Source: Patescibacteria group bacterium
GTDB taxonomy: Bacteria; Patescibacteriota; Microgenomatia; Levybacterales; GWA1-39-11
DNA: 64,000 nt
Reading direction: 5' to 3'
Assembly (NCBI GenBank): GCA_035549315.1
Contig: DASZRC010000026.1
Coordinates: 988-64,987, forward strand
The notes under the pieces were generated by a model. That model worked only from the letters and a program-made list of their open reading frames with translations. It was not told the origin of the DNA and did not search any database. The translations under genes and the position numbers were made by a program. Of the stretch, positions 17,443-55,903 are shown piece by piece; position 1 is the first letter of the stretch; every line of letters starts with the position of its first letter.

Positions 17443-19008
17443 ATGCGGATAACCCGTAATCATTTTCTGTTTTTAGGTGTAGCACTGGCAATATTAGCTT
17501 TGTACATAGTTCTTCGTTTGCTTAACATTCTAAATCTTCCTTTATTTACAGATGAGGCAATCTACATAAGGTGGGCTCAAATTGCAAAACAGGACGCTTC
17601 ATGGCGATTTATTGCTTTGGTTGACGGGAAAGGCCCCTCTTTTGTATGGGCAGAAATGCTAACTCTCAAACTGTTTAAGGATCCACTTTTTGCAGGCAGA
17701 ATGGTTTCCGTAATAACGGGTATATTTACTACAATCGGATTATTCTTTTTGGGCAACGAGGTGTTTCGTGAAAAACAAAAAGGAAAAGAATACAAAGTAT
17801 TTTCATTTACAAAAGAAACAGTGCCTTACGGTCTTCTTTCAAGTTTAATCTACGTTCTTTATCCGTTTGGATTGGTATATGACAGAATGGCTCTCTATGA
17901 CAGCATGGTTGGTATGTTTGCAGTTTGGTCTTTGTACTTGCTATTTTTATTGGTTAGAACCTTAAGGCTTGATGTAGCTTTAATAACCGGTATAGTTGCC
18001 GGAGGAGGTTTATTAACAAAAGTTAATGCAACGTTTTCTCTCTATTCAATTCCATTTTTACTTCTTATTTTTGATTGGAAACAAAAAAATGTTAAATCAC
18101 GTCTGGCAAAGTTTGTAGGCTTGTCTTTGGTAATAGTTATCCTTGCATATGGCATATATTCAATCCTTCGTCTATCGCCGTTTTACCACATAATTGGTGA
18201 GAAGACGACCCTTTTTGTGTATCCCTTTGGAGAATGGATACATCACCCCTTTACCTATTTTTATAGTAACGCCAGAGCGCTTCTTAATTGGTTCTTTATA
18301 TACATGTCTGTCCCTTCAATTATTCTTATAATAGCTTCATTTTTTGTAAATAAGAAAAACTTTATGGAAAAAGCGGTTCTATTTTTATGGTTTATTTTTC
18401 CAATTACAGCACTTGCCCTTTTTGGAAAATTAATCTACCCAAGGTTTATTTTATTTATGACATTATCATTAATACCTCTAATTTCATATTCAATTATTAA
18501 TTTGGTTGATAAATACAAAAGTCCTTTGATAAGAGCTCTAATTATTCTTTTCGCTTTTGTAATGTATATTTATGCTGATTATTTTATAATCTTTAACTTT
18601 GCTTATGCTCCAATCCCCGGAGCAGATCTTGGACAATATATTAACGGATGGAGTGCCGGGAATGGTGTTAAACAATCCGTTGCTTACTTCAACGAGCAAG
18701 CCAAAGATAAAAAAATATATATTGTTACGGAAGGTACATTCGGGCTTATGCCTTATGGGTTGGAAATGTACTTAGTTAATAACCCAAATATTAAAATTCA
18801 AGCTTTATGGCCAATAAATGATAATACTCCAAAAGATATTTTGGATAAAGCCAAGGTAATGCCAACATATGCCGTCTTTTATCAGCCATGCCCATCTTGC
18901 GGGAATGAAGGCGGAAAGATGCCTCCATTATGGAAGGGTGAAAAAGTTTTATCCGAGCAGCAAGGTATAGGTAACTCTTTCTACAGCGTTTATAGAATTC
19001 TTCCATGA
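17443..19008 (+). CDS. GT-C glycosyltransferase, PMT_2/GT39 (ArnT/Pmt-like) family
   Basis: The first loop has PLFTDEAIYIRWAQ, a DE motif. GPSFVW...DPLFAGRMVSVITG resembles the PMT_2 HPPL..RLPSAL.G region. Many TM segments. The track ORF starts at TTG 17431. Confidence 0.55.
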   Translation: MRITRNHFLFLGVALAILALYIVLRLLNILNLPLFTDEAIYIRWAQIAKQDASWRFIALVDGKGPSFVWAEMLTLKLFKDPLFAGRMVSVITGIFTTIGLFFLGNEVFREKQKGKEYKVFSFTKETVPYGLLSSLIYVLYPFGLVYDRMALYDSMVGMFAVWSLYLLFLLVRTLRLDVALITGIVAGGGLLTKVNATFSLYSIPFLLLIFDWKQKNVKSRLAKFVGLSLVIVILAYGIYSILRLSPFYHIIGEKTTLFVYPFGEWIHHPFTYFYSNARALLNWFFIYMSVPSIILIIASFFVNKKNFMEKAVLFLWFIFPITALALFGKLIYPRFILFMTLSLIPLISYSIINLVDKYKSPLIRALIILFAFVMYIYADYFIIFNFAYAPIPGADLGQYINGWSAGNGVKQSVAYFNEQAKDKKIYIVTEGTFGLMPYGLEMYLVNNPNIKIQALWPINDNTPKDILDKAKVMPTYAVFYQPCPSCGNEGGKMPPLWKGEKVLSEQQGIGNSFYSVYRILP

Positions 19009-21404
19009 AGAGTAAATTAATCTTGGTTTTATTGTTTGCTGGAATAATATCCATTGTATTTTTTCATCAAATTCTTAAAGGGTGGATGCCTTTCCCCGGA
19101 GATTTATTAGTTGGTAATCAAGAGCCATACAAATCTTATTCATACCAAGGGTTTGCCCCCGGCGCAGTTCCTAATAAAGCACAAGGTCCGGATGTAATAA
19201 AACAACTTGTTCCCTGGAAGAAATTTGCCATAGATAGTTTTAAAAAAAATCAAATTCCCTTTTGGGACCCCTATAATTTTTCAGGCAATCCTTTAATGGC
19301 AAATTTTCAAAGCGGAGTTTTTTATCCGCTAAATGTCATTTTCTTGACGTTGTCATTTCCAAGTGCTTGGACTATCTATATAGTTCTTACTCCAATTCTT
19401 TCAATATTTTTTATGTATTTATTCCTGGACAGGTTAAAGCTCAAGCCTGCTGCAAGTTTACTTGGTGGAATAAGCTTTTCTTTCTGTCTATACATGGGGG
19501 TGTGGATGGAATATGGAAATATAGGGCACACGCTTTTGTGGTTGCCGTTAATTTTATTTTTAGTTGATAGGTTTATAGATAAGCCTACGCGCTTAGATTT
19601 TTTGGGAATAGTAATTTCTTGTTTGTTGTCTATTCTTGCCGGTTATATTCAGGGAGTATTTTATATTTATGCAGTAGTTGTAATTTATTATTTTGCAAAA
19701 AGTATAAGTCTTAAAAAGATAGATAGAAAAAAGTCTTTATTTTTCTTACTAGCGCTTTTATTTCCGGTACTAATCGCGCTTCCGCAAATTTTACCAACTC
19801 TCGGGCTTTTTGTATATTCCACAAGGGGTAATTATACTTTGGATCAAATTCAAAAAAATCTTAATCCTATTTATTATTTAATAACAACTATTATCCCGGA
19901 CTTTTTTGGTAACCCGGCATCTAGAAATTTTTGGTTTAACGGTACGTATATTGAAAGGGTTTCTTATTTTGGTTTGATTCCTTTTGTCTTTGCAATTTTT
20001 GCTATTTCAACTTTATATAAAAAAATTGAAGTAAGAATATTTTCAATACTATTTGTTTTTACTTTGTTAATATCAACCGACATTTTTGTTACCAGATTTT
20101 TTTATCTAATTCCTATTCCGGTAATCTCAACAACAGTTGCAACAAGAATTCTTTCTATATTTAGTTTTTCGGGAGCAGTTCTTGCGGCTTATGGATTTAA
20201 TCATTTATTGGATCTAAAAGATAAAAAGAAGTTTTATATTATTTCTTCAATTGCCTTTATTTTTATTGCAGGGCTTTTTGTTTATGTAAATATCTATCCC
20301 AAAATCTCCAACAATGCTAATTTGATTAATGATTTTCAAACTTCAAAACGAAACATTATTATTCCAATGGCCACTATAATTTTGTTAATGCTTTCAACTT
20401 TTGCGCTTTTTCTAAAAAACTTTTCCAAGAGAAACTATAAATCATATTTATATATAATTTTAATATTAGTTATTTCATCTTTTGAGCTTTTTTATTATTT
20501 TCAAAAGATCACGCCATTTTCTCCAAAAGAATTTTTATATCCTCAAACTCCAGTTACCAAATTTTTAAAGGAAGAAGCGGGTATAAATAGAGCATGGGGA
20601 TACGGGTCTGCCTATATGGAGAGTAATTTCCAAACATTTGATAATACTTATTCAACAGAGGGTAATGATCCGCTTCACATAAAAAGTTACACAGAATTAC
20701 TTGCTGCAAGCAAGGATGGTAAGATCCCCAATATGTTGCCAAGGCCGGATGCAAATATTGCACCGGGATTTGGTAAGAGTGATTTAGTCTCTAATCTGTA
20801 TAGGAAAAAAGTGTTAGATATTACTGGCGTAAAATATATAATCAATAAAGATGAGAGTATTAATGGTAAATTTAACCCTGACTACACAACTTTTCCTGAA
20901 GATAAATATAAATTAGTCTGGCAGGAAGGTTATTGGCAGGCCTATGAAAATCTTAATGCTACGCCACGTTTTTTTGTTACAAATAATTACCAAGTAATAG
21001 ACGGTAATAAGGTTCTAGAGAAAATATTTGATAAAACTTTTGATGAAAAAAGGCAAATAGTTTTATCATCTAATCCGGGTATTAAGTCAGGGGTTTCATC
21101 AGGGAGTGCAAGACTTGTCTTCTATTCACCCAACAAAATTATAATAGATACAAATTCCAAAGTTCCTGCCCTTCTTTTTCTATCTGATAATTTCTATCCG
21201 GATTGGTCAGCAAGCGTTAATGGAAAAGAGGCTAAAGTTTTTCTGGCTGATTATACATTTAGAGCAGTTCCAGTCTCCAAAGGAAGCAGTAGGGTTATTT
21301 TTGAATTTAAAGCTAAAAAATTCTACTATGGATTATATATATCAATTGCCTCCATATTTATGCTGTTAGTTACATTGTTGGCAATGAATAAATATGAAAA
21401 ATAA
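19005..21404 (+). CDS. YfhO family membrane glycosyltransferase (GT-C)
   Basis: PFWDPYNFSGNPLMANFQSGVFYPLN is the YfhO signature. About 800 aa with an N-terminal TM bundle plus a C-terminal extracytoplasmic domain (YPDW...NG...G). Confidence 0.7.
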   Translation: MKSKLILVLLFAGIISIVFFHQILKGWMPFPGDLLVGNQEPYKSYSYQGFAPGAVPNKAQGPDVIKQLVPWKKFAIDSFKKNQIPFWDPYNFSGNPLMANFQSGVFYPLNVIFLTLSFPSAWTIYIVLTPILSIFFMYLFLDRLKLKPAASLLGGISFSFCLYMGVWMEYGNIGHTLLWLPLILFLVDRFIDKPTRLDFLGIVISCLLSILAGYIQGVFYIYAVVVIYYFAKSISLKKIDRKKSLFFLLALLFPVLIALPQILPTLGLFVYSTRGNYTLDQIQKNLNPIYYLITTIIPDFFGNPASRNFWFNGTYIERVSYFGLIPFVFAIFAISTLYKKIEVRIFSILFVFTLLISTDIFVTRFFYLIPIPVISTTVATRILSIFSFSGAVLAAYGFNHLLDLKDKKKFYIISSIAFIFIAGLFVYVNIYPKISNNANLINDFQTSKRNIIIPMATIILLMLSTFALFLKNFSKRNYKSYLYIILILVISSFELFYYFQKITPFSPKEFLYPQTPVTKFLKEEAGINRAWGYGSAYMESNFQTFDNTYSTEGNDPLHIKSYTELLAASKDGKIPNMLPRPDANIAPGFGKSDLVSNLYRKKVLDITGVKYIINKDESINGKFNPDYTTFPEDKYKLVWQEGYWQAYENLNATPRFFVTNNYQVIDGNKVLEKIFDKTFDEKRQIVLSSNPGIKSGVSSGSARLVFYSPNKIIIDTNSKVPALLFLSDNFYPDWSASVNGKEAKVFLADYTFRAVPVSKGSSRVIFEFKAKKFYYGLYISIASIFMLLVTLLAMNKYEK

Positions 21405-22941
21405 ATACATAATACTTGGTCTACTTATTTTATTGCTAATTCCATCTGTATGGTTTCTAGCAAAAAGCGGATTCGTTCTAACAGATGATGGAAACTGGAT
21501 GATAATTCGTTTCTCAGCATTTTACCAGGCTTTACGGGATGGACAATTTCCCGTTAGGTTTCTATCCAGGCTTAACTTTTCTTATGGATATCCTGTTGCT
21601 AATTTTTTGTATCCGGGCTTTATGTATATTGGTGTTCCAATAAAGCTTGCCGGTTTTAGTTTTGAACAGACAATAAAGGCAATTATTGCTGCCTCTTTTA
21701 TAGGTGGGGGAGTTTTTACATATTTTTGGCTTAAGAAGATTTTTGATGATATAAGTTCTTTTTTCGGGGCGATTTTATATACCTACGCTCCTTATCATTT
21801 GTTCGATGCATACAAGAGAGGGTCAGTTGGAGAAGTATTGTCTCTTGCGGTTTTGCCATTTGTTCTTTGGCAAATAGAGAGGGGCAGTATTTTCTGGATG
21901 GCAATTGGTATTGCTGCTTTAATAATTTCCCACAATACATTGGCGATACTCTTCTTGGGGTTTGTTATTGTTTACGTTTTTGCCAAAAGTTATGGTGTAA
22001 AGAAAAACAAAAAAAACATAGAAAACTATATTTTGGCTTTGGTTATGGGGCTTACCTTATCTGCTTTCTTTTGGCTTCCGGCAGTTTTTGAGCTAGGCTA
22101 TACGGTATTTTCATCAACTAAAATATCTGATTATTCCAAATATTTTGCAGACATAAGCCTTATTGGTATACCAACGTTTATCGTAATGGTAGCTGCATTG
22201 ATTTTGTTTGTTGTAAATAAATTAAAGCCCCAGAAAAATCTGCTCACAATTGCGGTATTTTTAATGGGTATTCTATCTATATATATGTCATCACAATTCT
22301 CATCATTTATTTGGGCTTATTTGCCTGTATCTTTTATTCAATTTCCGTTTAGGGTTTTATCGGTTACAATAATTTGCTTTGCTTATCTTTCTGCTTTTGC
22401 CCTAAATCAAACAAGAAATATCTACAAAATTGTATTTGGCTCAATTCTTCTAGTAGGTTGTTTATACATATCTATGAATACTATCTTTTATCCTAAACTT
22501 GTTAATAATGATGATTCTTTCTACTCTACAAATGAGGCAACTACAACGGTTATGGATGAATATATGCCGACTTGGGTTAAGGTAAAGCCCACTTCCCATC
22601 CGGATGATAGGATATTTATATTAAAGGGGCAGGGGGATGTTCAGAATATTATTAATGATTCCAATACTATTACTTTTGATTACTTGTCAAAGTCGCCATC
22701 TGTTGTGAGGATAAATACAATTTATTATCCCGGTTGGAAAGCATATTCAGGAAATAATGAAAAGGCCATTTTCTATGACAATAATCAAGGCTTAATGGAC
22801 CTAAAGTTAGAAGGCGGAAATCAAAAAATAAAGCTTATATTTGGTGAGACTCCAATTAGGGTTCTGGCAGATTTTGTGTCACTAATTACTTTATTGGTTT
22901 TAATAGCATCGGAAATTAAAAAATTTGACTTCAATAAATAA
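21394..22941 (+). CDS. polytopic membrane protein, PTPS-related-domain (PF10131-like) family, GT-C-like
   Basis: Family blocks: DDGNW..RF..F.QALRDGQFPVRF, YKRGSVGEV, ISHN, and C-terminal YYPGWK. Confidence 0.5.
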   Translation: MKNKYIILGLLILLLIPSVWFLAKSGFVLTDDGNWMIIRFSAFYQALRDGQFPVRFLSRLNFSYGYPVANFLYPGFMYIGVPIKLAGFSFEQTIKAIIAASFIGGGVFTYFWLKKIFDDISSFFGAILYTYAPYHLFDAYKRGSVGEVLSLAVLPFVLWQIERGSIFWMAIGIAALIISHNTLAILFLGFVIVYVFAKSYGVKKNKKNIENYILALVMGLTLSAFFWLPAVFELGYTVFSSTKISDYSKYFADISLIGIPTFIVMVAALILFVVNKLKPQKNLLTIAVFLMGILSIYMSSQFSSFIWAYLPVSFIQFPFRVLSVTIICFAYLSAFALNQTRNIYKIVFGSILLVGCLYISMNTIFYPKLVNNDDSFYSTNEATTTVMDEYMPTWVKVKPTSHPDDRIFILKGQGDVQNIINDSNTITFDYLSKSPSVVRINTIYYPGWKAYSGNNEKAIFYDNNQGLMDLKLEGGNQKIKLIFGETPIRVLADFVSLITLLVLIASEIKKFDFNK

Positions 22942-22942: not shown

Positions 22943-24664
22943 ATGAAAATTAAGAAATATTTACCAGACATTGTGTATTTAGCTGTTTATTTTATCCTGG
23001 GCTTATTAACAATTCTTCCTTTCTTTAAGCCGGGCTTTTTTGCATTCCATGACGACGTTCAGGTTTCAAGATTCTATGAGATGGGGCAAGCTTTGATATC
23101 TGGACAATTTCCAGTGAGATGGGTTGGGGATTTGGGTTATGGATTTGGTTATCCAATATTTAATTTTTACTCTGTGCTCCCATATTATATAGGTGGTTTT
23201 ATAAATGTATTTGGCGCGGACGCTTTAATTGCAGCAAAAACGGTTTTTGTAATTGGAATTTTGCTTTCTGGATTATCCATGTTTTTTCTAATCAAAGAAT
23301 TTTTTGGTAGACTACCTGCTTTGGTGGCATCAATTGCGTATTTATACTTTCCATATCATGCTGTGAATATCTATGTCAGGGGAGATCTTGCTGAGCTTTT
23401 TGCTTATGCTATCCTTCCTTTGGTTTTTTTGGGACTTTTAAAAATTCATTACTCAAAGGCTAACTTGATTCCTAAGGCGGCAATCATTATTTTGTCTTTG
23501 TCTCTTTTTGCTTTAATAATCTCCCACAATCTATCGGCCTTAATGATGGGAATTTTTATAACTATTTTTGTAGTTGTTTCATTAGTTGCTACAAAAAATA
23601 AAGAAATATATAAATGGTATTTAATTTCATTCTTAATCGCCTTTTTGCTATCTGCTTTTTATACAATACCGGTTCTTTTTGAAATGAAATATACAAATGT
23701 ACTATCACAAGTTGGAATAGGTGGGGGATCAAACTATAAGGACCATTTTCTTTGCATTAACCAATTGTGGAATAGTCCTTGGGGATTTGGTGGATCAACC
23801 AAAGGGTGTATTGCTGATGGGCTTAGTTTTAGATTGGGGAAGATTTATATTTTACTAACTCTTATATCAATTGCCCTGGCAGGATTTTATTTTAAAAAAA
23901 TTAAAGACAAGGCAATGATTTTATTTATTTCAATTGCCTTCCTTCTATTCAGTATATTTATGACTTTGGAGGTCTCGGGCATTATATGGTCTATCCCATA
24001 TATGAATTTTTTGCAGTTCCCATGGAGATTTTTAAATTTTGCGGGATTGTTTATGGCAACTTTAATTGGAATTTCTGTTTATTTAATAGAAAAGGTTTCT
24101 AAAAAAGAAATCTATACTATTGTTGCAGGTCTTATGGTGATAGGAATAATATTCTTTAATGCTAAGTTATTTGCGCCACAGGAGTATCTTAATAGGGAAG
24201 CATCATATTATACAAATAAATATTATCTCAATTGGACTGCATCAAAAATATCGGATGAATATCTCCCTAAAAATTTTAAAAAGCCCACCAATTCTCATGA
24301 CGTGTGGAATTATCCCTTTGAGGCTATACTGCCAAATGGCAACTTGCCCTTACCAAATAAGTTAGTTACAAAAACTCCAACAGATTTGGTTGCTACAACA
24401 AATTTGGCAAATAATTTTGGAGTTGTGGCAAAAACTCCCTATTTTCCTGCATGGAATATTTATATAGATGGTAAAAAAGTGAATTATAAGATTAAAAATG
24501 GAGAAATGTATTTTTCGTTGCCTGCAGGACCCCATAAGATAGAAATTCGTTTTGAACAGACAAGAATTGAGCTTTTGGGTGATTTATTAACTGTTATTGG
24601 AGTTGTAGCTATTTCTATTGTTATAATAAATAAGTCCAAATTTTATGGCAGAAAAACTTCCTGA
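22943..24664 (+). CDS. polytopic membrane protein, PTPS-related-domain-like family (paralog)
   Basis: FHDDVQVSRFYEMGQALISGQFPVRWVGDLGYGFGYPIFNFY, YVRGDLAE, ISHN, YFPAWNIYIDG...GPHKIEIRF. The track ORF starts at 22925. Confidence 0.5.
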   Translation: MKIKKYLPDIVYLAVYFILGLLTILPFFKPGFFAFHDDVQVSRFYEMGQALISGQFPVRWVGDLGYGFGYPIFNFYSVLPYYIGGFINVFGADALIAAKTVFVIGILLSGLSMFFLIKEFFGRLPALVASIAYLYFPYHAVNIYVRGDLAELFAYAILPLVFLGLLKIHYSKANLIPKAAIIILSLSLFALIISHNLSALMMGIFITIFVVVSLVATKNKEIYKWYLISFLIAFLLSAFYTIPVLFEMKYTNVLSQVGIGGGSNYKDHFLCINQLWNSPWGFGGSTKGCIADGLSFRLGKIYILLTLISIALAGFYFKKIKDKAMILFISIAFLLFSIFMTLEVSGIIWSIPYMNFLQFPWRFLNFAGLFMATLIGISVYLIEKVSKKEIYTIVAGLMVIGIIFFNAKLFAPQEYLNREASYYTNKYYLNWTASKISDEYLPKNFKKPTNSHDVWNYPFEAILPNGNLPLPNKLVTKTPTDLVATTNLANNFGVVAKTPYFPAWNIYIDGKKVNYKIKNGEMYFSLPAGPHKIEIRFEQTRIELLGDLLTVIGVVAISIVIINKSKFYGRKTS

Positions 24665-25358
24665 ATTATCCGTCTTCTTTCCTTTTTGGAACGAAGAGAA
24701 AAATATTGAAAAAGTTGTTGGCTCAGCTGTTGAGGTTGCAAGCCGTGTAGCTTCAAAGTGGGAGATAATAATAGTTGATGACGGATCAAAAGATTCAACG
24801 CTCGAGAAGGCTAAGAAGTTGGCTTCAAGTAATCCGAATATAAAGATAATTTCTCATAATCCAAATAGAGGATATGGAGCAGCACTCAAAGAAGGGCTTA
24901 TCAATTCAAAATATGAATACGTTGCGTTTACAGACGGTGACGGGCAATTTGACTTTAATGAAATTGACAAATTTATAGCAGAAATAAAGGACGCAGATAT
25001 GGTAATTGGTTATAAGGTTAAAAGAAATGACCCATTCGGTAGATTAGTATTAATGAATATGTTAAAGGCTTGGGATTATATGTTTTTCTCTCTTTGGTTC
25101 AGAGATATTGATTGTGGATTCAAAATGTTTAGAAAAAAAGCGTTAGATGAAATCATGCCATTAAGATCAGAAGGCGCTATGATCACTACGGAAATCCTGG
25201 CAAAAGCTATAAGGAAGAAGTTAGTTATAAAAGAAGTACCGGTTAATCATTATCCAAGGCAATTTGGTGAACAGTCTGGAGCAAATATTCCGGTAGTTAT
25301 TAGAGCAGTTCTCGAAAGTTTAATTTTATGGTGGGATATAAAGAATAGGAGAGTGTAA
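24645..25358 (+). CDS. GT2 polyprenyl-phosphate sugar synthase (DPM1-like)
   Basis: SVFFPFWNEEKNI...IIVDDGSKDST...YVAFTDGDGQ...VIGYKVKRND. Confidence 0.75.
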   Translation: MAEKLPELSVFFPFWNEEKNIEKVVGSAVEVASRVASKWEIIIVDDGSKDSTLEKAKKLASSNPNIKIISHNPNRGYGAALKEGLINSKYEYVAFTDGDGQFDFNEIDKFIAEIKDADMVIGYKVKRNDPFGRLVLMNMLKAWDYMFFSLWFRDIDCGFKMFRKKALDEIMPLRSEGAMITTEILAKAIRKKLVIKEVPVNHYPRQFGEQSGANIPVVIRAVLESLILWWDIKNRRV

Positions 25359-25367: not shown

Positions 25368-26807
25368 ATGGACTCCACGAAGGATATAGTAAAACACAGC
25401 ATTAATGGGGTAGTGGCTTTAATATCTAAGACTATAATTCTTGAGATCTTTTTTGGTACAACATCAATAATAATATTCAGCGTACTTACACAGGCTGAAG
25501 TAGGATTGTATGCCGTTGTAATATCTATTCAGAGGGTTATTAGTTTTGTTACAGATTTTGGATTTGGTGCCGCTTTGGTGCAGAAAAAGGACGAAATCAC
25601 CACAAAAGATTTACACACAACATTTACGCTACAAGCATCATTAACATTTGGTATTTTTTTATTGACGCTGATTTTAAGACCCCAGCTTATGAGTTTCTTC
25701 CATCTTGGGAATGAAGGTTACCTACTTTTACTGGTTCTAGTTTTTACAATATTTTTATCTTCCTTCAAGGTTATTCCCTCAATACTTTTGGAGCGTAAAA
25801 TTCACTTTCATAAACTTATAATTCCACAAACCGTTGAGACAATTGCATTTAACATAGTGCTTCTTTCTCTGGTTTTGAATCATTTTGGAATAAATAGTTA
25901 TACTTGGGCTTTCCTAATATCTAGTATTATAAGTATTCCCGTATACTATTTTGTTTCTCCTTGGGAGGTTGGGGTTGGTGTACACAAAGAATCATTAACC
26001 CATCTTAAGTTTGGACTGCAATTTCAGGCAAAAAACGTTTTGGCAACGATTAAAGACGATTTTATAACTGTAATACTGGCAAAGTTTTTAACTTTTACTC
26101 AAATTGGATTTATTGGATTTGCACAAAACCTAGCATTCTATCCTTATAGATATTTTGTAGATAGCGTGACTAGAGTAACCTTTTCAACTTATGCAAGAAT
26201 GCAAGGAGACTTAGATCTTCTAAAGAAGACAATAGAAAAATCCTTATTTTTTGTAAGCCTTATAATGTTTCCTGTTTTGGTGGGGCTAATGGTGACTGCT
26301 CCATATATTATAGAGTTCTTCCCAAAGTGGAATGGTAAATGGGAGCCTGCTTATCTGAGCTTAGTGTTCTTTGCTCTAAATGCGATGATCTCATCTCTTT
26401 CCGGAATTCTTGTTAACGTTTTAGATTCAAACGGCAAGGTAAAGCTCACACTGAGGCTCATGGGAATTTGGACAGCTCTTACATGGATACTAACCTTTTT
26501 GTTCATATACCTATGGGGATATAACGGTGTAGCTATAGCGTCATTTATGGTTACATTAACGATTTTCTACACTGTCTATTTGGTAAAGCAAATCGTAGAT
26601 TTTTCTATGCTCAGATCTATTTATCAACCTCTTATATCTGCTGTTATAATGGGTTTGGGAGTATATTTCCTTTGTCGTATATTTGCGACAAACCTTTTTA
26701 CTTTGGTAATTGTTAGTGGGGTTGGTGCAGCAATTTACCTAACTATAATGTACTTTATGATTGGAAAAGAAATCATCCAAGATATTAAATTAATCTTAAA
26801 AAGATGA
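25368..26807 (+). CDS. oligosaccharide/polysaccharide flippase (Wzx-like, MOP superfamily)
   Basis: About 12-14 TM segments. The polysaccharide-biosynthesis-protein N-terminal pattern is present (LISKTIILEIFFGTTSIIIFSVLTQAEVGLYAVV). Confidence 0.6.
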   Translation: MDSTKDIVKHSINGVVALISKTIILEIFFGTTSIIIFSVLTQAEVGLYAVVISIQRVISFVTDFGFGAALVQKKDEITTKDLHTTFTLQASLTFGIFLLTLILRPQLMSFFHLGNEGYLLLLVLVFTIFLSSFKVIPSILLERKIHFHKLIIPQTVETIAFNIVLLSLVLNHFGINSYTWAFLISSIISIPVYYFVSPWEVGVGVHKESLTHLKFGLQFQAKNVLATIKDDFITVILAKFLTFTQIGFIGFAQNLAFYPYRYFVDSVTRVTFSTYARMQGDLDLLKKTIEKSLFFVSLIMFPVLVGLMVTAPYIIEFFPKWNGKWEPAYLSLVFFALNAMISSLSGILVNVLDSNGKVKLTLRLMGIWTALTWILTFLFIYLWGYNGVAIASFMVTLTIFYTVYLVKQIVDFSMLRSIYQPLISAVIMGLGVYFLCRIFATNLFTLVIVSGVGAAIYLTIMYFMIGKEIIQDIKLILKR

Positions 26808-28656: not shown

Positions 28657-30297
28657 ATGGAACTTATCAAAAAAAACTTAGGTTTAATAATAGTTATTAT
28701 TCTTGGGGCAATTCCTTTATTTAGCTTGTTGCACCCGGGTCTTCCTTTAACTCATGATGGCCAAGATCATGTTGCAAGAATTGCTAATTTCTATCAATCT
28801 CTCAGCGAAGGCAACATAATTCCTAGATGGGCTGGGAATCTTGATTGGGGATATGGGCACCCCATCTTGATGTTTTTGTATCCATTCTCGTCATACGCCG
28901 CATCTTTTTTTCACTTCTTGGGATTTAATTTTGTAGATTCTCTTAAGATCGTATTTGGTTTGGGTTTTATCGCCAGTGGCATATGTATGTATATTTGGTT
29001 AAGAGAATTCTTAGGAGAGAAGGTAGCAATTGCCGGAGCTACGCTCTATCTGTATGCTCCCTATAGATTTGTTGATCTGTATGTTAGAGGAGCAATAGGA
29101 GAGCACATGGCCTTTATTTTTCCACCTTTAATTGCATACTTCCTTATCAAAATGGTAAATAAAAAATCTTACTGGTATTTTCTTGGGGCCACATTATCCA
29201 TTGCCGGACTTATACTATCCCACAATGCATTATTAATAATGTTTCTTCCAATCATTATGATCTATGGTTTATACCTAATTCTTACTAATAAAAAACAATC
29301 CCAAAGATTAATTATTGAATATCTATTAGCTCTATTGTTAGGATTTAGTCTTTCATCATTCTTTATAATTCCGGCATTTTTAGAAGGTAAATACACCTTG
29401 CGTGATATTGTTACCGATGGGGAAGTATTAAAAAGATTTGTCCAATTTAAAAATATAATATATAGTCCGTGGGGGTATGGAGATTTCTCTGTTCAGCTAG
29501 GGATTGCGCAGTGGGCTACGATAATTTTCTTTCCTTTTGTTATTTATAAACTCAAAAAAAATACAAATAATTTAATTCTTTATTTAATATTTTTTGTATA
29601 TTTCTTGGGAAGTATAGTCATAATGCTTCCCGAGGCAAAACTAATTTGGCAAGTTATTACAACGCTTCAAAAATTCCAATTCCCTTGGAGATTTTTGTCT
29701 GCCTCTGTTTTTTCGGCAGCTCTTTTAGGAAGCTTTTTTGTTTTTGTACTTAAGAAAAATGTTCAGCTATTGGGAGTTGTATTGATTGTTGTTTTTTCAA
29801 TTATTTTGACTAAAACCTACTGGCAACCAAAGGCATATCTTATGAAGCCGGAAGCTTTTTATACAGGGATTTATAACGGGACAACAGATACCGGTGAAAG
29901 TGCTCCTATTTGGTCGGTAAGGTTTATGGAGAACCGTCCAAAAGCCAGAATTGAGGTAATCGAAGGGAAAGCCACTATTAAAAATGTTTCTAGAAATTCT
30001 ACAGAGCATGTATATACAGTTGTCTCTAATGGCAATTCAGGATTAAGAGAGAATACATTATTCTTTCCGGGATGGAAAGTTTATATAGATGGTGTTGAGT
30101 ATCAAAATGTTGAATTTCAAGATCCTCATAACCGAGGCTTGATGACTTTCAAGGTTCCCAATGGGGAACATAAAGTTGATATTAAATTTGAAAACACCAA
30201 GCTTAGGACCATATCAAATGTTATATCACTTGTTTCAATAGCTATTGTTTTTCTTGTGTATTTTGTGTGGAAGCAGAGAATTAAAAAACTAACATGA
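28657..30297 (+). CDS. polytopic membrane protein, PTPS-related-domain-like family (paralog)
   Basis: THDGQDHVARIANFYQSLSEGNIIPRWAGNLDWGYGHPILMFLYP, YVRGAIGEH, LSHN, FFPGWKVYIDG...GEHKVDIKF. Confidence 0.5.
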   Translation: MELIKKNLGLIIVIILGAIPLFSLLHPGLPLTHDGQDHVARIANFYQSLSEGNIIPRWAGNLDWGYGHPILMFLYPFSSYAASFFHFLGFNFVDSLKIVFGLGFIASGICMYIWLREFLGEKVAIAGATLYLYAPYRFVDLYVRGAIGEHMAFIFPPLIAYFLIKMVNKKSYWYFLGATLSIAGLILSHNALLIMFLPIIMIYGLYLILTNKKQSQRLIIEYLLALLLGFSLSSFFIIPAFLEGKYTLRDIVTDGEVLKRFVQFKNIIYSPWGYGDFSVQLGIAQWATIIFFPFVIYKLKKNTNNLILYLIFFVYFLGSIVIMLPEAKLIWQVITTLQKFQFPWRFLSASVFSAALLGSFFVFVLKKNVQLLGVVLIVVFSIILTKTYWQPKAYLMKPEAFYTGIYNGTTDTGESAPIWSVRFMENRPKARIEVIEGKATIKNVSRNSTEHVYTVVSNGNSGLRENTLFFPGWKVYIDGVEYQNVEFQDPHNRGLMTFKVPNGEHKVDIKFENTKLRTISNVISLVSIAIVFLVYFVWKQRIKKLT

Positions 30298-32615
30298 AAA
30301 AAATTTTAATTAGATTTTGGCCAATCATACTTATTTTTGTAATTTGGCTAGTTTTTGCCTCCCCCTACTTGGTTAAAGGAAAAGTACCCTTCCCATCAGA
30401 CTATCTTGCAGCAAACTTTGGGCCCTGGAATTCATACGGAAATTATGTGGGAGGGGTTAAAAATGGTGCGACTCCGGATGTAATAAGTCAGATATATCCA
30501 TGGAAAAAAATGGTCATAGATATTTGGAAAACCGGGAGCCTTCCGTTATGGAACCCATACAATTTTTCCGGGACGCCGCTACTCGCAAATTATCAGTCTG
30601 CTGTATTATCACCTCTCAATCTGATCTATTTTGTACTGCCTTTTATTGATGCCTGGAGTATACAAATAATACTCGCTCCGCTTCTTGCCGGAATATTTAT
30701 GTACCTTTTTACAAGATCGCTTAAGATAAGTGAATTTGGTTCTCTTACTGCATCTCTTGCTTTTATGTTTTGTGGATTTATTACCTCTTGGTTAGTTTAT
30801 GGAACCTTACCTTATGCAATTTTATTTTTACCACTTTCCTTATTTGCAATAGAAAAATTTATCTTGGATAAAAAAAGAATTTACCTTTTGATTTTGGCTT
30901 TATCTATTCCGTTCTCATTTTTCAGTGGACATTTTCAAACAAGTATCTACTTTATTCTATTTATATTAATTTACTTAATTTATGAATCTATTGTAAATAA
31001 GAGATTAATTATTCCGCTCTATATCTCTGTCCTTTCAGGGCTTTTATTATCTGCTCCTCAGCTTTTTCCATCAATTGAGTTTTATTTTGAGTCTGTAAGA
31101 AGTTCAATATTTATAAAAACGGAAGTGATACCTTGGGGTTATCTTCCTACACTTATTGCTCCGGATTTTTTTGGAAATCCGGTAACTCGAAATGATTGGT
31201 TTGGCCACTACGCTGAGTGGAATATGTATATTGGTTTAATCCCATTGTTTCTTGCTTTTTATTCCTTCTCTAAAAAAAATAAAGATACAATATTTTTTGG
31301 AATAGCAGCACTAGTTATTTTATTACTATCCTTCCAAACGCCTTTATTAGATTTATTAATTGCATTAAAGATCCCTGTTTTATCAACAAGTGCGGCATCA
31401 AGAATAGTTGTTTTGTTTAGTTTCTGTTTATCTGTTTTAGCAGGGTTTGGTTTAGATAAGGTAGTAAAAGATGTTGAAGAGGAGAAGTTTAAAAAAATAG
31501 TTCCCCTCTTTGCCATCTTCTTTTTAATTTTTGCCGCTCTATGGACAATAGTAATAACAAAAAGTATATTGCCGCTAGATAAGGCATCTATTGCTTATTC
31601 TAATCTAAGATTGCCTTCTATAATTTTTGCATGTTTTGTTGTTGTCAGCCTTATTTTATTTATCATAAAAAATAAAAAAATGAGATTTATTATCTTGGGC
31701 TTTCTTATTTTGCTTGTTTCAGTAGATTTAATTAGGTTTTCTTTAAAGTGGCAACCTTTTGAGGATAGAAGCCTAATGTATCAGAATGTTCCAATAACCA
31801 ATTTTCTTAAAAACATTAAGCCAGAGGACAGGGTTTTTGGTTCAATAAATCAAGAGGGTGCAATGTACTATGATTTTTCAATTCCGGAAGGATATGATCC
31901 ACTTTATATCGGGCGTTATGGTGAATTGATTGGCGCAGCAAAAGATGGAGAATATCATAGTCCGGAAAGATCAGTTGTTAGCTTGTCAAAAAATGGCCAG
32001 TATACAGGACAAATAATTAATCTTCTTGGGATTAAGTATATTATTCATAAAATTTCAGATGGGCAGGCAGTATGGGCATTTCCATATTGGACTTATCCAG
32101 TAGATACTTTTAGAGAAGTTTATAAAGACGACAAATATCTGGTTTTAGAAAATGATAAAGCACAACCTAGAGCCTTTTTTGTTGATAAAGCCAAAGTTGT
32201 AAAAAATAATAGAGAAATTCTAAGACAATTATTTAGAAAAGAATTGGATTTAAGAAAAAACGCTGTCTTGGAAGAAAATCCGGGAATTAGTGAGGGAAAT
32301 TCATCTGGGAGTGCTATTGTCAAAGTCTACACGCCAAATAAAGTAGAAGTAGCAACAAATAATAACAAAGCGTCTGTTCTTGTTCTTTCAGACCCTTACT
32401 ACCCGGGGTGGAGAGCTACGATTAATGGGAAACCTGCCAAAATTTATAGAGCAGATTATGCTCTCAGGGCAGTTGTCGTGCCTAAAGGAAAGAATACAGT
32501 TACATTTAGTTATAATCCCAAAAGCTTCCTTTATGGCTTAGTTTTAGCAGGAATTGGCGTGATAATGCTTATTTTGCTCATGTTTTATTCGGCTATGCCT
32601 CCCCGAAAAAAATGA
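30294..32615 (+). CDS. YfhO family membrane glycosyltransferase (GT-C), paralog
   Basis: LPLWNPYNFSGTPLLANYQSAVLSPLN. C-terminal YYPGWRATINGKPAKIYRADYALRAV. Confidence 0.7.
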   Translation: MKKILIRFWPIILIFVIWLVFASPYLVKGKVPFPSDYLAANFGPWNSYGNYVGGVKNGATPDVISQIYPWKKMVIDIWKTGSLPLWNPYNFSGTPLLANYQSAVLSPLNLIYFVLPFIDAWSIQIILAPLLAGIFMYLFTRSLKISEFGSLTASLAFMFCGFITSWLVYGTLPYAILFLPLSLFAIEKFILDKKRIYLLILALSIPFSFFSGHFQTSIYFILFILIYLIYESIVNKRLIIPLYISVLSGLLLSAPQLFPSIEFYFESVRSSIFIKTEVIPWGYLPTLIAPDFFGNPVTRNDWFGHYAEWNMYIGLIPLFLAFYSFSKKNKDTIFFGIAALVILLLSFQTPLLDLLIALKIPVLSTSAASRIVVLFSFCLSVLAGFGLDKVVKDVEEEKFKKIVPLFAIFFLIFAALWTIVITKSILPLDKASIAYSNLRLPSIIFACFVVVSLILFIIKNKKMRFIILGFLILLVSVDLIRFSLKWQPFEDRSLMYQNVPITNFLKNIKPEDRVFGSINQEGAMYYDFSIPEGYDPLYIGRYGELIGAAKDGEYHSPERSVVSLSKNGQYTGQIINLLGIKYIIHKISDGQAVWAFPYWTYPVDTFREVYKDDKYLVLENDKAQPRAFFVDKAKVVKNNREILRQLFRKELDLRKNAVLEENPGISEGNSSGSAIVKVYTPNKVEVATNNNKASVLVLSDPYYPGWRATINGKPAKIYRADYALRAVVVPKGKNTVTFSYNPKSFLYGLVLAGIGVIMLILLMFYSAMPPRKK

Positions 32616-33933: not shown

Positions 33934-35010
33934 ATGCGTATCGGAGTTTATGACCCTTATCTTGATGATATGGGAGGGGGGGAGAAATATATGGTGACAT
34001 TGGCCACGAGCCTTCTTCCCGGAAATGAAGTGGATATATTTTGGGATAACAGGGATGACCTTGATAGAGTGGCTCAAAGATTCTCCTTAGATGTGGCCAA
34101 TTTAAGAGTTGTACCAAATATTTTTTCCCAAAAGGTTGGTACTATAAAAAGACTAATAGAAACTAAAAAATATGATGCCATAATCATTCTGTCCGATGGT
34201 AGTATTCCATTAGTTTCTTCTAAGAAATTATTTTTACATGTCCAGCAACCAATTCCTAATGCAAAGAAAAATATCAAATCAAGGCTAAAACTTAAAAGGG
34301 TAAATAAAGTTTTTTGTAACTCATACTTTACAAAAAGTTTTGTAGATAAGGATTTGGGAGTAGATAGTATTGTTGTTTATCCTCCGGTTTCTCTTCATCC
34401 TAAAAATGTAAGTAAAGAAAATATAATTCTTCACGTTGGAAGATTTAGGGTTAGAAATGTTGGTGTATCAGATTACAAAAAACAAGACGTAATGGTTGAG
34501 GTGTTCAAGAAGATGGTTAAGAAAGGTCTTAAAAAATGGAAATTTGTCATAGCAGCAAGTGTTGCAAGTTCTAGTGAGGATGAGGTTAAGCTTTTTGAGG
34601 AGTTTGTTAACAAGACAAAGGATTTTCCCATTGAGTTTGAAGTTAATAAATCAAATGCCGAACTGTGGGATTTATATTCTAAAGCCAAGATTTATTGGCA
34701 TGCTTCAGGTTTTGGCGAAGATTTGGAAAAACACCCTGAATTTGCAGAACATTTTGGTATATCAACAGTAGAGGCAATGGGCGCAGGAGATGTGCCTGTT
34801 GTTATTAATGCGGGTGGACAGAAAGAAATAGTAGAAGATGAAGTAACAGGATTTCTATGGAATAACTTAGATGAATTAGCAGATAAGACTATGTTGCTAA
34901 CGCGTGAAGATAAGATCCTTGCTACAATGTCAGCGGCAGCAAAGAAAAAAGCAAAAGATTTTGCAGGAGACAGATTTGCCGATGATGTAAGAAGAATGGT
35001 ATATGCTTAG
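33934..35010 (+). CDS. GT4 glycosyltransferase
   Basis: C-terminal FGISTVEAMGAGDVPVVINAGGQKEIVEDEVTGFL is the E-x7-E-like GT4 donor-binding block. Confidence 0.75.
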   Translation: MRIGVYDPYLDDMGGGEKYMVTLATSLLPGNEVDIFWDNRDDLDRVAQRFSLDVANLRVVPNIFSQKVGTIKRLIETKKYDAIIILSDGSIPLVSSKKLFLHVQQPIPNAKKNIKSRLKLKRVNKVFCNSYFTKSFVDKDLGVDSIVVYPPVSLHPKNVSKENIILHVGRFRVRNVGVSDYKKQDVMVEVFKKMVKKGLKKWKFVIAASVASSSEDEVKLFEEFVNKTKDFPIEFEVNKSNAELWDLYSKAKIYWHASGFGEDLEKHPEFAEHFGISTVEAMGAGDVPVVINAGGQKEIVEDEVTGFLWNNLDELADKTMLLTREDKILATMSAAAKKKAKDFAGDRFADDVRRMVYA

Positions 35011-38895: not shown

Positions 38896-40530
38896 ATGTT
38901 TAAAGATAATGCAACCTTAACCAAGATATTTTTATTTTTTGTTATTGGTCTTCTTTTTCTATACCCATTGTTTACAAACAAATTTTATTTATCACACGAC
39001 GGTCAAGCTCAGGTCGCAAGATTTGGAGCTTATCTAAAAGCCTTTAATGACGGAGATATACCACTTAGATGGGCAGGTGACCTTAATTACAGGTATGGAT
39101 CGCCGGTTCTTATATTCTATTACCCATTACCCGGAATATTGTCTATTCCGCTTTATGAATTAGGAGCAACCTTTGAGTCTGCTTTTAAAATCATTGTTGG
39201 ATTTTCCTTTATTCTGTCGTTTATTTCTTTCTACTTGTGGATGGTTGAGCTTACAAAAAATAAAGATTCATCATTTCTAGCAAGTATTGTATATGGGTTA
39301 CTTCCCTATCACTTCTTAAACCTATATGTACGTGGTGATATTGCAGAGAGTCTAGCCTTGGCAATTGCCCCTTTAGTATTCTATTCAATAGAAAAACTCA
39401 ACAATACTAAAGAAATCAAATACGCGATTTATTTAAGCGTTTTATACTCTTTGTTAATTCTTTCTCACAACTCGGTAAGCCTATTGATGTCACCCATAAT
39501 ACTTATTTATTCTTTAATTAGAGCCGGGAGTAAAAAAATTTCTATTATTAGTATAGCCTCAATAATAATTGGTTTATTTCTTTCTTCTTTTTTTTGGTTG
39601 CCGGCTCTTCTAGAGGCAAAATATACAAATTCCCATCTATTTGTTGCCGATATGTATAAAAATAATTTCCCAAGTTTTGTTTCCTTAATTTATTCAAAAT
39701 GGGGATTTGGTGCAAGTGTTAATGACCAAGGAGGCTTATCGCCCCAAATTGGAATTGTCCCTTGGATATTTGTTCTAATGACCGGATTATTAATAGCTTT
39801 TAAAAAAATAAAACTAATGAATATTTTAATTTTTTGGATGATTATATTTATAGTCTGTGTATTTCTAACAATTAAACCTTCTATTTTTTTCTGGCAGCAT
39901 TTACCCTTATTATCTCTATTGCAGTTCCCATGGAGATTTGTAGGCATTGCTTCATTTGCTGCTGCTGCAATTGTGGGAATTTTTTCTCCTTATCTTAATA
40001 AAGACAAAATATATTTGCTTTCTGCTCTTATAATTATCTATTCATTTACATTTATTAAAATCCAGGGTATTAATCCTAAATCAAATCAATTTTACTTAAA
40101 CTATCCCGGAACTACTTATTACCATGGGCAAGCAAGCTCTATTTGGACAGCCGGAGACTTTGGTAGTTTTCCCAAAAAAAGTATAGATATTATTGGTGGG
40201 AAGGGGAAAATAGCCGACCTAACTAGAAAAAACAGCACTCATACATTTAGCGTAGATGCAGATACGGAGCTCAAGATATTAGACAATACGGTTTATTTTC
40301 CAGGTTGGCAGGTGTTGATTGATGGAGTAAAAAACCCTATAGAGTTTCAGGATATGTACCATAGGGGGCTAATTACATTTAATGTTCCAAAGGGTAAGCA
40401 TTCTGTAATTGTAAATTTCAAGGAATCACCGATGAGATTGCTTTCAGATATTATATCTTTATTTGGAATACTGGTTATAATTATGTTATTGATGTTTAAT
40501 GAAAAGATAGATAGGTTCTTGTCTAAATGA
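38896..40530 (+). CDS. polytopic membrane protein, PTPS-related-domain-like family (paralog)
   Basis: SHDGQAQVARFGAYLKAFNDGDIPLRWAGDLNYRYGSPVLIFYYP, YVRGDIAES, LSHN, YFPGWQVLIDG...GKHSVIVNF. The track ORF start at 38845 overlaps the previous gene, so Met18 (38896) is preferred. Confidence 0.5.
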   Translation: MFKDNATLTKIFLFFVIGLLFLYPLFTNKFYLSHDGQAQVARFGAYLKAFNDGDIPLRWAGDLNYRYGSPVLIFYYPLPGILSIPLYELGATFESAFKIIVGFSFILSFISFYLWMVELTKNKDSSFLASIVYGLLPYHFLNLYVRGDIAESLALAIAPLVFYSIEKLNNTKEIKYAIYLSVLYSLLILSHNSVSLLMSPIILIYSLIRAGSKKISIISIASIIIGLFLSSFFWLPALLEAKYTNSHLFVADMYKNNFPSFVSLIYSKWGFGASVNDQGGLSPQIGIVPWIFVLMTGLLIAFKKIKLMNILIFWMIIFIVCVFLTIKPSIFFWQHLPLLSLLQFPWRFVGIASFAAAAIVGIFSPYLNKDKIYLLSALIIIYSFTFIKIQGINPKSNQFYLNYPGTTYYHGQASSIWTAGDFGSFPKKSIDIIGGKGKIADLTRKNSTHTFSVDADTELKILDNTVYFPGWQVLIDGVKNPIEFQDMYHRGLITFNVPKGKHSVIVNFKESPMRLLSDIISLFGILVIIMLLMFNEKIDRFLSK

Positions 40531-50796: not shown

Positions 50797-50799
50797 TTT

Positions 50800-51588: not shown

Positions 51589-51596
51589 ATTAACTT

Positions 51597-54242: not shown

Positions 54243-55903
54243 CAGGAAAAATCCTCACGCTTATTAAAAAGAATTTAGCACTAATAATTGCTGTAGGATT
54301 TGCTTTATTAGCAGTAATTGACCTAAGTCATTTTGGTCTTCCGCCAACACATGATGCTGAGTATCACGTTATGCGTTTTCAGCAGTTTTATAAGGAAATT
54401 TCTCAAGGGATTTTTTATCCCCGTTGGGCACCAGATTTTAATAATGGTTTTGGAATTCCCTTATTTAACTATGTATATCCTCTGCCAAATTTTGTGGCAG
54501 CGTTATTTCATTCATTGGGTTTTGGCTTTATTGATTCTTTTAAGCTGAATATGGTGCTCGCAACTTTATTTGGCTCTATATTTTTCTACTTGTGGTCCAA
54601 AAAGTATTGGGGGACTCTTGGTGCAATGGTGTCTTCTATTTTTTATACCTTCTCACCATACCACTTTGTTGATATATATGTCAGGGGATCTGTTGGAGAA
54701 GTTTGGGCTTTAGCAATTTTTCCTGCTTTATTGTGGTCATATTCTGAATACTCTGAAAATAAAAAAAATGCATACATTGTTTTATCAAGTGTTTTTTTGG
54801 GTCTACTTATTTATTCGCACAACATTCTTGCTTTAATCTCTTTTATCTTTTTTACACTTTATGCATTTATTCTTATTAAGAAAAAAAGAGTTTTTACTCA
54901 AATTAAATCTTTTATTTTCATTGTTGTTATGGGCTTTGGTTTGGGTGCCCCCTTTTGGTTACCTGCGATACTAGAGACAAAGTATGTTACCGGTTTGCAG
55001 TTATTTGATGTAACGAAAAACTTTACACCTATTTATAAGTTTTTTGTTCCTACTTGGGGGTTTGGATTATCACCCGCTGATCCGCTAAATCCTATGTCGG
55101 TCCAATTGGGGTATGCAAACATTCTAGCTGTTTTGTTAAGTATTTTTGTGTGCATATTGAGTAAAAGAAAAAAGCTTTTAGTTTTCTTTATTGTTTCTTA
55201 TTTTTTAATTTTCTTTATGATGACTAGTTATTCCACAATATTTTGGAAAATTATTCCTTTAATTTCTTATTTTCAATTTCCGTGGAGATTGCTAGGCCTA
55301 GAGATTTTAATTTCATCTTTTCTTGTAGGGTCAATATTTTCACTTAAATACCTAGATAAAAAGGAAAACATTCAGATAATTATAGCCTCTGTTTTGATAG
55401 TTATTTCTGTGGGATTAAGCTTTAGATATATGAAGGCGCCATTCTATCACCAAAGATTGGATTCTCATTATTTAACCAGAAGTAACTTTACAGATGGTAC
55501 AAATAGTCCGGGAAATTCATTTAATACACTATGGCTAACCAAAGGCTTGCCTAAAAAACAAAAAGATAAGGTGAAAATAGTTAATGGTCAAGGTAGTGTT
55601 GGTATAGTCAATGCTACTGCTAATGATTATGTAATTGTTGCAAATTCCAAAAAGGGGATGGCAATTATTTTAAATGTTGCTTATTTTCCAGCATGGCAGG
55701 CAAGTATTGGGAATAAAAAAACTTTAATTTATGAAAAAGACGGAATTGTGGAGATCAAAGTACCAAAGGGCAGAAGTGTAGTTGAGGTAAAACTTACAAA
55801 TACACCAATTGAAGCTTTTGCATGTCTTTATTTTTTGATATCGCTTATTCTTCTGGTGCTGATTAGCAATAAAAGTATTGATATAATTAACCCTATTAAA
55901 TAA
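54239..55903 (+). CDS. polytopic membrane protein, PTPS-related-domain-like family (paralog)
   Basis: THDAEYHVMRFQQFYKEISQGIFYPRWAPDFNNGFGIPLFNYVYP, YVRGSVGEV, YSHN, YFPAWQASIG. Confidence 0.5.
   Translation: MTGKILTLIKKNLALIIAVGFALLAVIDLSHFGLPPTHDAEYHVMRFQQFYKEISQGIFYPRWAPDFNNGFGIPLFNYVYPLPNFVAALFHSLGFGFIDSFKLNMVLATLFGSIFFYLWSKKYWGTLGAMVSSIFYTFSPYHFVDIYVRGSVGEVWALAIFPALLWSYSEYSENKKNAYIVLSSVFLGLLIYSHNILALISFIFFTLYAFILIKKKRVFTQIKSFIFIVVMGFGLGAPFWLPAILETKYVTGLQLFDVTKNFTPIYKFFVPTWGFGLSPADPLNPMSVQLGYANILAVLLSIFVCILSKRKKLLVFFIVSYFLIFFMMTSYSTIFWKIIPLISYFQFPWRLLGLEILISSFLVGSIFSLKYLDKKENIQIIIASVLIVISVGLSFRYMKAPFYHQRLDSHYLTRSNFTDGTNSPGNSFNTLWLTKGLPKKQKDKVKIVNGQGSVGIVNATANDYVIVANSKKGMAIILNVAYFPAWQASIGNKKTLIYEKDGIVEIKVPKGRSVVEVKLTNTPIEAFACLYFLISLILLVLISNKSIDIINPIK

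Follow-up and report, generated by a model that had tools for sequence, protein, structure and literature searches.

Two sets of membrane proteins encoded side by side in a small bacterial genome appear to end in the same block of sequence, and the question raised by this locus is whether that block was added to two different kinds of enzyme or was inherited by one. We analyzed a 64,000-nt window of GCA_035549315.1, the assembly of an uncultured, Levybacteria-like Patescibacteria group bacterium (contig DASZRC010000026.1, positions 988 to 64,987 of the forward strand; all coordinates below are those of the window), in which a first-pass annotation had listed three membrane proteins of the YfhO type and five of the PTPS_related type. 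That annotation proposed a shared extracytoplasmic beta-domain fused to two different GT-C-type transmembrane (TM) cores. We found the cores to be homologous to each other, and we consider it probable that the eight proteins are paralogs of one GT-C-fold glycosyltransferase lineage that spans YfhO and PTPS_related, for which we infer a mechanism of sugar transfer.

Eight membrane proteins and their C-terminal module

The window has a GC content of ~33% and is encoded on the + strand nearly throughout from ~15.3 kb onward. The eight open reading frames (ORFs), which we label Y1-Y3 for the YfhO-type and P1-P5 for the PTPS_related-type proteins, are present at the coordinates first given for them, all on the + strand. 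Y1 (19005..21404, 799 aa), Y2 (30294..32615, 773 aa) and Y3 (35003..37258, 751 aa) score 88.3, 121 and 124.1 bits against Pfam YfhO (PF09586), above its gathering cutoff of 28.5 bits. P1 (21394..22941, 515 aa), P2 (22943..24664, 573 aa), P3 (28657..30297, 546 aa), P4 (38896..40530, 544 aa) and P5 (54239..55903, 554 aa) score 39.2, 52.9, 57.1, 60.2 and 60.3 bits against Pfam PTPS_related (PF10131), above its cutoff of 26.4 bits. The lengths of P2 and P4 are counted from the ATG codons at 22943 and 38896; the P2 frame is open from a TTG at 22925 and the P4 frame from 38845. Sequence divergence within the sets is high, with pairwise identities of just 28-31% among P1-P5 and of 34-36% between Y1 and either Y2 or Y3. 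The P-type proteins reach the Pfam YfhO model solely via the C-terminal module described below and remain under its cutoff, both for the whole P3 protein (21.9 bits) and for the excised P modules (14.5-24.5 bits).

A module of ~75-80 residues is present at the C-terminus of all eight proteins. The P-type block reads [YF]-[YF]-P-x-W ... G, and the alignment revealed the same block in Y1-Y3, in line with the initial observation that both types share it. Comparison of the P-type and Y-type C-termini (~100 residues, 92 columns) by hhalign gave a probability of 97.9% (E 5e-13). Pairwise BLASTP between P and Y modules reached E-values down to 1e-9, as for P4 and Y3 (46% identity, E 1.3e-9) and for P5 and Y2 (E 9e-10). 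A hidden Markov model (HMM) built from the five P modules only scored the three Y modules at 25.6-36.4 bits, while the best of 3000 composition-matched shuffles scored 12.3 bits. All eight excised modules align in register with one and the same part of the Pfam YfhO model (~755-825 of its 835 positions), with E-values of 1e-5 to 0.011 for the P modules and of 1e-7 to 2e-16 for the Y modules. The Pfam YfhO model thus already includes the module as its C-terminal end. The PTPS_related model was matched by none of the isolated modules in the Pfam scan, and a module search of the window found no copy in any other ORF.

The Y modules are encoded at 21084..21323 (Y1; YfhO positions 758-824, E 1.2e-7), 32289..32528 (Y2; 758-827, E 2.3e-16) and 37022..37255 (Y3; 749-822, E 3.4e-10). 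The P modules lie at 22615..22854 (P1; 756-823, E 6.9e-4), 24332..24571 (P2; 758-823, E 1.1e-5), 29953..30210 (P3, residues 433-518; 755-824, E 1.9e-4), 40186..40443 (P4; 759-823, E 1.6e-3) and 55574..55813 (P5; 763-821, E 0.011), all on the + strand. A terminal TM helix follows the module in seven of the eight proteins; hydropathy places the corresponding hydrophobic segment of Y1 at residues 773-797 (~21321-21395). The exception is Y3, which ends straight after the module with the residues EFYNNLL and a stop codon. Its 57%-identical ortholog in a syntenic relative (locus L001, 16035-18320) ends in the same way, with EFYNTLF and a stop codon. Since both orthologs share this type of end, the loss of the anchor is a feature of the lineage and not an assembly error.

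AlphaFold2 (AF2) models of P3 and Y2 were built on alignments of 60 and 66 sequences, respectively. Both are of high confidence, with a predicted local distance difference test (pLDDT) score of 92.1 and a predicted TM-score (pTM) of 0.92 for P3, and of 90.2 and 0.91 for Y2. The models bear out the expectation of an equivalent C-terminal domain in both types: the module forms an eight-stranded beta domain in P3 (strands within 432-511) and in Y2 (672-740), and the strands pair one to one, in the same order, on the aligned sequences. A helix directly follows the beta domain at residues 515-545 of P3 (~30199-30291) and 743-767 of Y2 (~32520-32594). The module is placed between the last core TM helix and this terminal TM helix, in agreement with the extracytoplasmic location proposed in the first-pass annotation, and its position is that of the loop which TMHMM predicts to be extracellular in Bacillus subtilis YfhO (PMC5836110). 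An identity of the module as a carbohydrate-binding module (CBM) was considered and found to be unsupported: Foldseek gave no more than insignificant local hits, to a GH30 side domain and the CBM2b xylan-binding domain (E-values of 0.3-0.9), and in the Pfam scan one module weakly matched DUF4397 (E 1.9e-3).

Core homology and the conserved first loop

The proposal of two different TM cores did not withstand comparison of the cores themselves. Aligned by hhalign from the window paralogs only, the P-type and Y-type cores match with a probability of 98.7% (E 2e-16). With deeper alignments the probability rises to 99.4% (E 2e-21), over residues 1-290 of the P-type and 1-322 of the Y-type. The match includes the first loop, where a P-x-W motif (P56/W58 in the P-type, P84/W86 in the Y-type) and a G-x-P motif (G67/P69 and G93/P95) coincide. 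The database protein P0315 matches both Pfam models on one core, and the Pfam hits precomputed for some P3 orthologs likewise name both YfhO and PTPS_related. Another database protein, P0269, is called YfhO at a length of 562 aa, a short form. With homologous cores and double Pfam matches on one core, common descent accounts for the shared tail better than fusion does. The simplest reading is that the beta-sandwich and its anchor were inherited within the lineage.

The two models were compared with solved structures using Foldseek. Both match STT3, PglB, AglB, ArnT and AftD in the PDB with a probability of 1.0 and E-values of 1e-6 to 1e-3 (for STT3, 1.8e-4 with P3 and 1.0e-6 with Y2), and the TM-scores to solved GT-C enzymes are ~0.4-0.48. 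This similarity establishes a GT-C fold for both types. No solved YfhO or PTPS_related structure was present among the PDB matches of P3 and Y2, and neither family profile found a sequence match among all PDB chains, even at E<=10. Like STT3, PglB, AglB, ArnT and AftD, the window proteins have an acidic first-external-loop residue and carry an extracytoplasmic domain C-terminal to the TM core. This domain is of the mixed alpha/beta WWDYG type in the oligosaccharyltransferases (STT3, PglB and AglB); in the window proteins it is a small beta-sandwich that a last TM helix anchors back in the membrane.

The P-type and Y-type models differ ahead of the module. In Y2, a loop of residues 487-742 spans the distance between helices 461-486 and 743-767, while P3 has a shorter loop (390-514). 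The Y2 loop contains an additional alpha/beta domain at ~residues 487-665 (31752..32288, + strand), at the place of which P3 has a linker of ~40 residues. The Y-type thus exceeds the P-type by an alpha/beta domain of ~180 residues before the module and by about two more TM helices. In the simplest reading, the P-type proteins are in effect compact YfhO-like enzymes without this middle domain and about two of the helices.

Alignment of the five P-type proteins confirmed the blocks that the first-pass annotation had seen in them: an N-terminal loop block, a motif that we define as Y-[VK]-R-G-x-x-[GA]-E (with Y, R, G and E invariant), an invariant S-H-N and the C-terminal block. A further shared block reads Q-F-P-[WF]-R. 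The suggestion that an H-D-x-x-x-H motif and an R-W pair in the first loop hold the key residues was not supported: the Asp and two Arg residues of the loop are invariant, while His and Trp vary. The P3 block (residues 30-69; 28744..28863, + strand) lies between TM1 (helix 8-25) and TM2 (helix 92-119) of the model, and column counts over the 60 P-type sequences left only D34, R41, G52, R57, G67 and P69 invariant. At least one of the window paralogs lacks H33, and the same is true of H38 and of W58; the first loop of P1, TDDGNWMIIRF...FPVRF, diverges most. In the corresponding block of Y2 (residues 32-95; 30387..30578, + strand), residues P32, D62, Q66, P69, W70, P84, W86 and G93 are invariant over 66 sequences. 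Both types therefore contain an acidic first-loop residue of the kind conserved in GT-C enzymes, D34 in 60/60 P-type and D62 in 66/66 Y-type sequences, and the models place both between TM1 and TM2. These data support the view that the invariant Asp just past TM1 occupies the place of the GT-C conserved acidic residue.

The first-pass annotation regarded the proteins as belonging to a family with no assigned function. This holds for PTPS_related, a member of the GT-C clan CL0111 whose function is listed as unknown (PMC7801869), but not for YfhO, for which glycosyltransferase roles have been assigned genetically (PMC5836110; 10.1101/2024.05.05.592596). Our comparators for the YfhO family were the YfhO proteins of B. 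subtilis, Staphylococcus aureus and Listeria monocytogenes, PgfM1/PgfM2 of Streptococcus mutans and streptococcal PgtC2. Teichoic acids are glycosylated in a three-component scheme in which YfhO acts together with CsbB and GtcA (PMC5836110, PMC8035078). A large loop separates the last two TM helices of YfhO (PMC5836110), and the S. aureus protein has been suggested to possess an extracellular domain that binds carbohydrate (PMC8035078). Ser/Thr-rich proteins are glycosylated by PgfM1, which works with PgfS, and by PgtC2, which works with GtrB (10.1101/2024.05.05.592596).

Y1-Y3 resemble these proteins in passing the Pfam threshold, in having, past the GT-C core, a large loop that connects the last two TM helices, in carrying the C-terminal beta module on Pfam positions ~755-825, and in being clustered with GT2 genes whose products resemble PgfS and CsbB-type lipid-sugar synthases at scores below the NCBIfam cutoffs. 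C-terminal segments of Y1 (729-790) and Y2 (693-763), which overlap the module and the terminal helix, match the C-terminal ends of the PgfM1/PgfM2 models, with E 1.4e-9 for Y2 against the C-terminus of NCBIfam PgfM2. The window proteins differ in their host, which is a Patescibacteria organism here and a Firmicute there, in the presence of three YfhO paralogs and five compact relatives in one array, and in the absence of the terminal anchor from Y3. YfhO-like families apart from reference YfhO have been noted before (PMC10584680). One of them, 'Component 27' (Durairaj et al., Nature 2023, PMC10584680; representative A0A7X7MB17), is similar in its published description: it is bacterial, labelled YfhO yet distinct, GT-C-like and linked to STT3/PglB, and its median length of 665 aa falls between our two types. 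Our literature search found no paper tying YfhO to Patescibacteria among those listed, and no paper describing the shared tail or the compact P-type architecture. What the analysis adds is a correct and useful refinement of annotation for an enzyme type that is already known; it does not reveal a new type of system.

Proposed mechanism and competing explanations

Fold and gene context together suggest that the eight proteins likely transfer sugars from polyprenyl-phosphate carriers outside the cytoplasm, with the beta-sandwich as an accessory domain. A cytoplasmic GT2 would load a sugar onto polyprenyl phosphate, the lipid-linked sugar would be flipped across the membrane, and each GT-C paralog would transfer it, on the external side, to a protein or a surface glycopolymer. 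We expect this mechanism to conform to the CsbB/YfhO and PgfS/PgfM scheme that is already known. The first-loop Asp (D34 in the P-type, D62 in the Y-type) would act as the usual catalytic or metal-binding residue of GT-C enzymes, and the tethered beta-sandwich would hold the acceptor or cap the active site. An accessory role of the module is suggested because it lies outside the membrane, is lost in one ortholog and retains as invariant solely P, W and G, which look structural, both among the eight window proteins and among 62 full-length carriers from the database search described below. The ortholog in question is that of P2 (L001 1599-3131, 510 aa, 47.6% identity), which gave no module hit at E<=10 and has kept its terminal hydrophobic helix. 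The module is thus dispensable in evolution. We count this ortholog and the anchorless Y3 lineage in favor of an accessory rather than a catalytic role.

Several observations weigh against a single lineage with this mechanism. P1-P5 resemble PTPS_related in passing its threshold through the TM core, but their match is confined to positions 1-315 (21-315 in P1) of a model with 621 positions. The half from ~316 to 621 is unmatched by the best stretches of the window proteins and their relatives, and the C-terminus matches YfhO instead. A match to all 621 positions was found neither in the window proteins nor in the individually scanned relatives, in which the best stretch covers ~1-346 at most; coverage here refers to the best-scoring stretch, and P2, P0241, P0242 and P0315 have a second one. 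A few module carriers have N-terminal parts like those of other GT-C families, for instance P0254, which is DUF2079-like at 25.5 bits, below the cutoff. The hhalign alignment is of low confidence at the pairing of the P-type D34 with the Y-type D62 or D36. The proteins scanned included no identifiable GtrA/GtcA-type flippase. Finally, the beta-sandwich has no significant match to a solved CBM, the Foldseek hits noted above being local.

Some of these observations would fit domain shuffling, in which a mobile beta-domain with its anchor was fused independently to two distinct GT-C cores. The P-type cores match just the first half of PTPS_related and their tails match YfhO; a few carriers have cores that are recognized as neither family, namely P0254, P0346 and a Solidesulfovibrio protein that has no Pfam hit; and the module can be lost by itself. 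However, the cores are homologous, first loop included, at the hhalign probability given above, and the place of the module is constant, after the last core helix and before the terminal helix. Intermediates and double Pfam matches on one core also exist, and the core of the Solidesulfovibrio protein is itself weakly YfhO-like. We consequently regard independent fusion as unlikely, although some mobility of the module may have occurred, judging from the sequences of the unusual carriers.

In another alternative, the module would not be accessory but would itself contribute to catalysis or donor binding, with its conserved Arg and His binding, for instance, the lipid phosphate. The candidate Arg (R493 in P3, R725 in Y2) is present in 57/60 and 65/66 orthologs and the candidate His (H505 in P3, position 734 in Y2) in 49/60 and 59/66, both are nearly invariant among the 62 diverse carriers, and the pTM values of 0.91-0.92 may indicate a fixed placement of the module relative to the core. 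Yet three of the eight window proteins (P1, P2 and P5) lack the Arg, four (Y1, Y2, P1 and P5) lack the His, that of the 'G.H' motif, and the P2 ortholog lacks the whole module. Moreover, solved GT-C enzymes have their donor-binding residues in the TM core and its loops. A catalytic or donor-binding module is, in our judgment, distinctly improbable. Least tenable is a coincidence of low-GC amino-acid composition, which the first-pass annotation had named as a possible refutation: the genome has ~33% GC and the proteins are rich in K, N, I, F and Y, but the composition-matched shuffles fall far below the real modules, the Pfam matches are in register, the predicted strand order is identical and the module is kept in the higher-GC Microvirga and Solidesulfovibrio, so that we discount this explanation almost entirely.

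If the eight proteins are indeed one lineage, as we consider probable, the proteins named '6-pyruvoyl-tetrahydropterin synthase-related' here would be compact YfhO-like GT-C glycosyltransferases, which would clarify the annotation of a group that is abundant in Patescibacteria. The small C-terminal beta-sandwich is a sensitive marker for the entire lineage, and a domain model of its own would improve annotation.

Distribution of the module and the surrounding gene island

The wider occurrence of the module was assessed by comparing a profile built from all eight copies with 1.84 billion proteins. It retrieved 35,820 representatives (clusters at 50% identity) at E<=1e-3, of which 5,665 were at E<=1e-10. 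Among the full-length proteins of the best 150, the module ends ~20-35 residues before the C-terminus and the carrier lengths cluster near 545 and 770 aa. The 62 full-length carriers contain Pfam matches to YfhO in 37/62 and to PTPS_related in 36/62. Y2 aligns through the module with YfhO proteins of Bacteroidota and Proteobacteria (Microvirga).

The Solidesulfovibrio protein mentioned above is encoded on the S. magneticus plasmid pDMC1 (L083 1455-3962; WP_148208556.1). This 835-aa 'hypothetical protein' has no Pfam hit at E<=0.1 and combines the module (31.4 bits, E 1e-11) with a weakly YfhO-like core. The module therefore detects family members that Pfam misses. Some very long predicted proteins in the database, P0241 (1670 aa), P0242 (3329 aa) and P0243 (3051 aa), carry 2-4 copies of the module alongside YfhO, PTPS_related and PMT_2 regions, and are either polyproteins of several fused GT-C enzymes or the product of merged gene calls.

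A bolder interpretation, which we put forward as speculative and rather doubtful, is that a very large, so far only partly recognized superfamily of extracytoplasmic GT-C enzymes has the beta-sandwich with its anchor as its defining and most conserved hallmark; the cassette would act as an acceptor selector, and adjacent P-type and Y-type enzymes would act jointly. If true, this superfamily would unite YfhO, the compact 'PTPS-related' proteins of Patescibacteria and proteins without a Pfam match, in >35,000 clusters at 50% identity. Loss, retention and duplication of the cassette, together with the adjacencies Y1-P1-P2 and P3-Y2, would then reflect co-acting enzymes, possibly heteromers, that build a complex surface glycan in episymbiotic bacteria.

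Closer relatives of the modelled proteins were also identified. P3 and Y2 are 100% identical to proteins of a Patescibacteria metagenome-assembled genome at NCBI, where they are named '6-pyruvoyl-tetrahydropterin synthase-related protein' and 'YfhO family protein', respectively. Their orthologs, at 49-73% identity, belong to Levybacteria and Gottesmanbacteria, and a scan of the genome collection with the P3 family alignment returned close Levybacteria/Gottesmanbacteria orthologs alone (49-67% identity). Many public third-party-annotation (TPA) assemblies with Levybacteria-type P3 orthologs (loci L003-L082) are titled 'uncultured Gammaproteobacteria bacterium', and these titles are probably wrong.

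The eight genes are located within a glycosylation island of at least 48 kb, extending from position 15287 to the window end at 64000. The island encodes 18 GT-C-like membrane proteins (three YfhO, five PTPS_related, six PMT_2-like, two GT87-like and two unassigned), at least ten GT2 proteins, four GT4 proteins, two MOP flippases and GalE. Such an island is striking for a Patescibacteria organism with a small genome. The 48-kb array and its 18 GT-C genes point to extracytoplasmic glycosylation of an elaborate kind, encoded by a reduced genome.

Two short GT2 proteins of 237 aa each (Pfam Glycos_transf_2, + strand) are candidate polyprenyl-phosphate-sugar synthases. The first (24645..25358) overlaps the end of P2, and its best NCBIfam likenesses are PgfS, AglJ, ArnC and PpgS, all below cutoff. 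The second (38181..38894) lies directly upstream of P4 and scores 112 bits with AglJ and 83 bits with PgfS, both below cutoff. The likeness of these two proteins to PgfS, AglJ, ArnC and PpgS, all of which attach sugars to polyprenyl phosphate, is a resemblance only. A flippase of the MOP/Wzx type is encoded at 25368..26807 (+ strand; Polysacc_synt_3, E 2.8e-45), with 113 bits against the NCBIfam MOP flippase model, whose cutoff is 273.

A relative, at ~60% identity, preserves the gene order Y1-P1-P2-GT2-Wzx-GT2-GT2-...-P3-Y2-GT2-GT4-Y3-GT2-GT2. In the syntenic relative L001, a fourth YfhO-type paralog (19941-21647, 802 aa, ~31% identical to Y1-Y3) occupies the P4 slot, after a GT2 of 239 aa. 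Thus, P-type and Y-type genes swap within the array.

Further genes were observed in and next to the island. Two multi-TM proteins without a Pfam hit at E<=0.001, encoded at 42275-44227 (650 aa) and 47972-49471 (499 aa), may be unclassified GT-C-like enzymes. Rfam and tRNA scans found nothing relevant within the region, and there was no hint of defence or phage functions. A gene for a 23S rRNA-intervening-sequence protein (45914-46258; PF05635, E 4e-34) lies in the middle of the array, between two PMT_2-type genes. Just upstream of the island are genes for a full-length LigD with phosphoesterase, ligase and primase-polymerase regions (8527-10986) and for an AlkZ-like DNA glycosylase (13769-14851).

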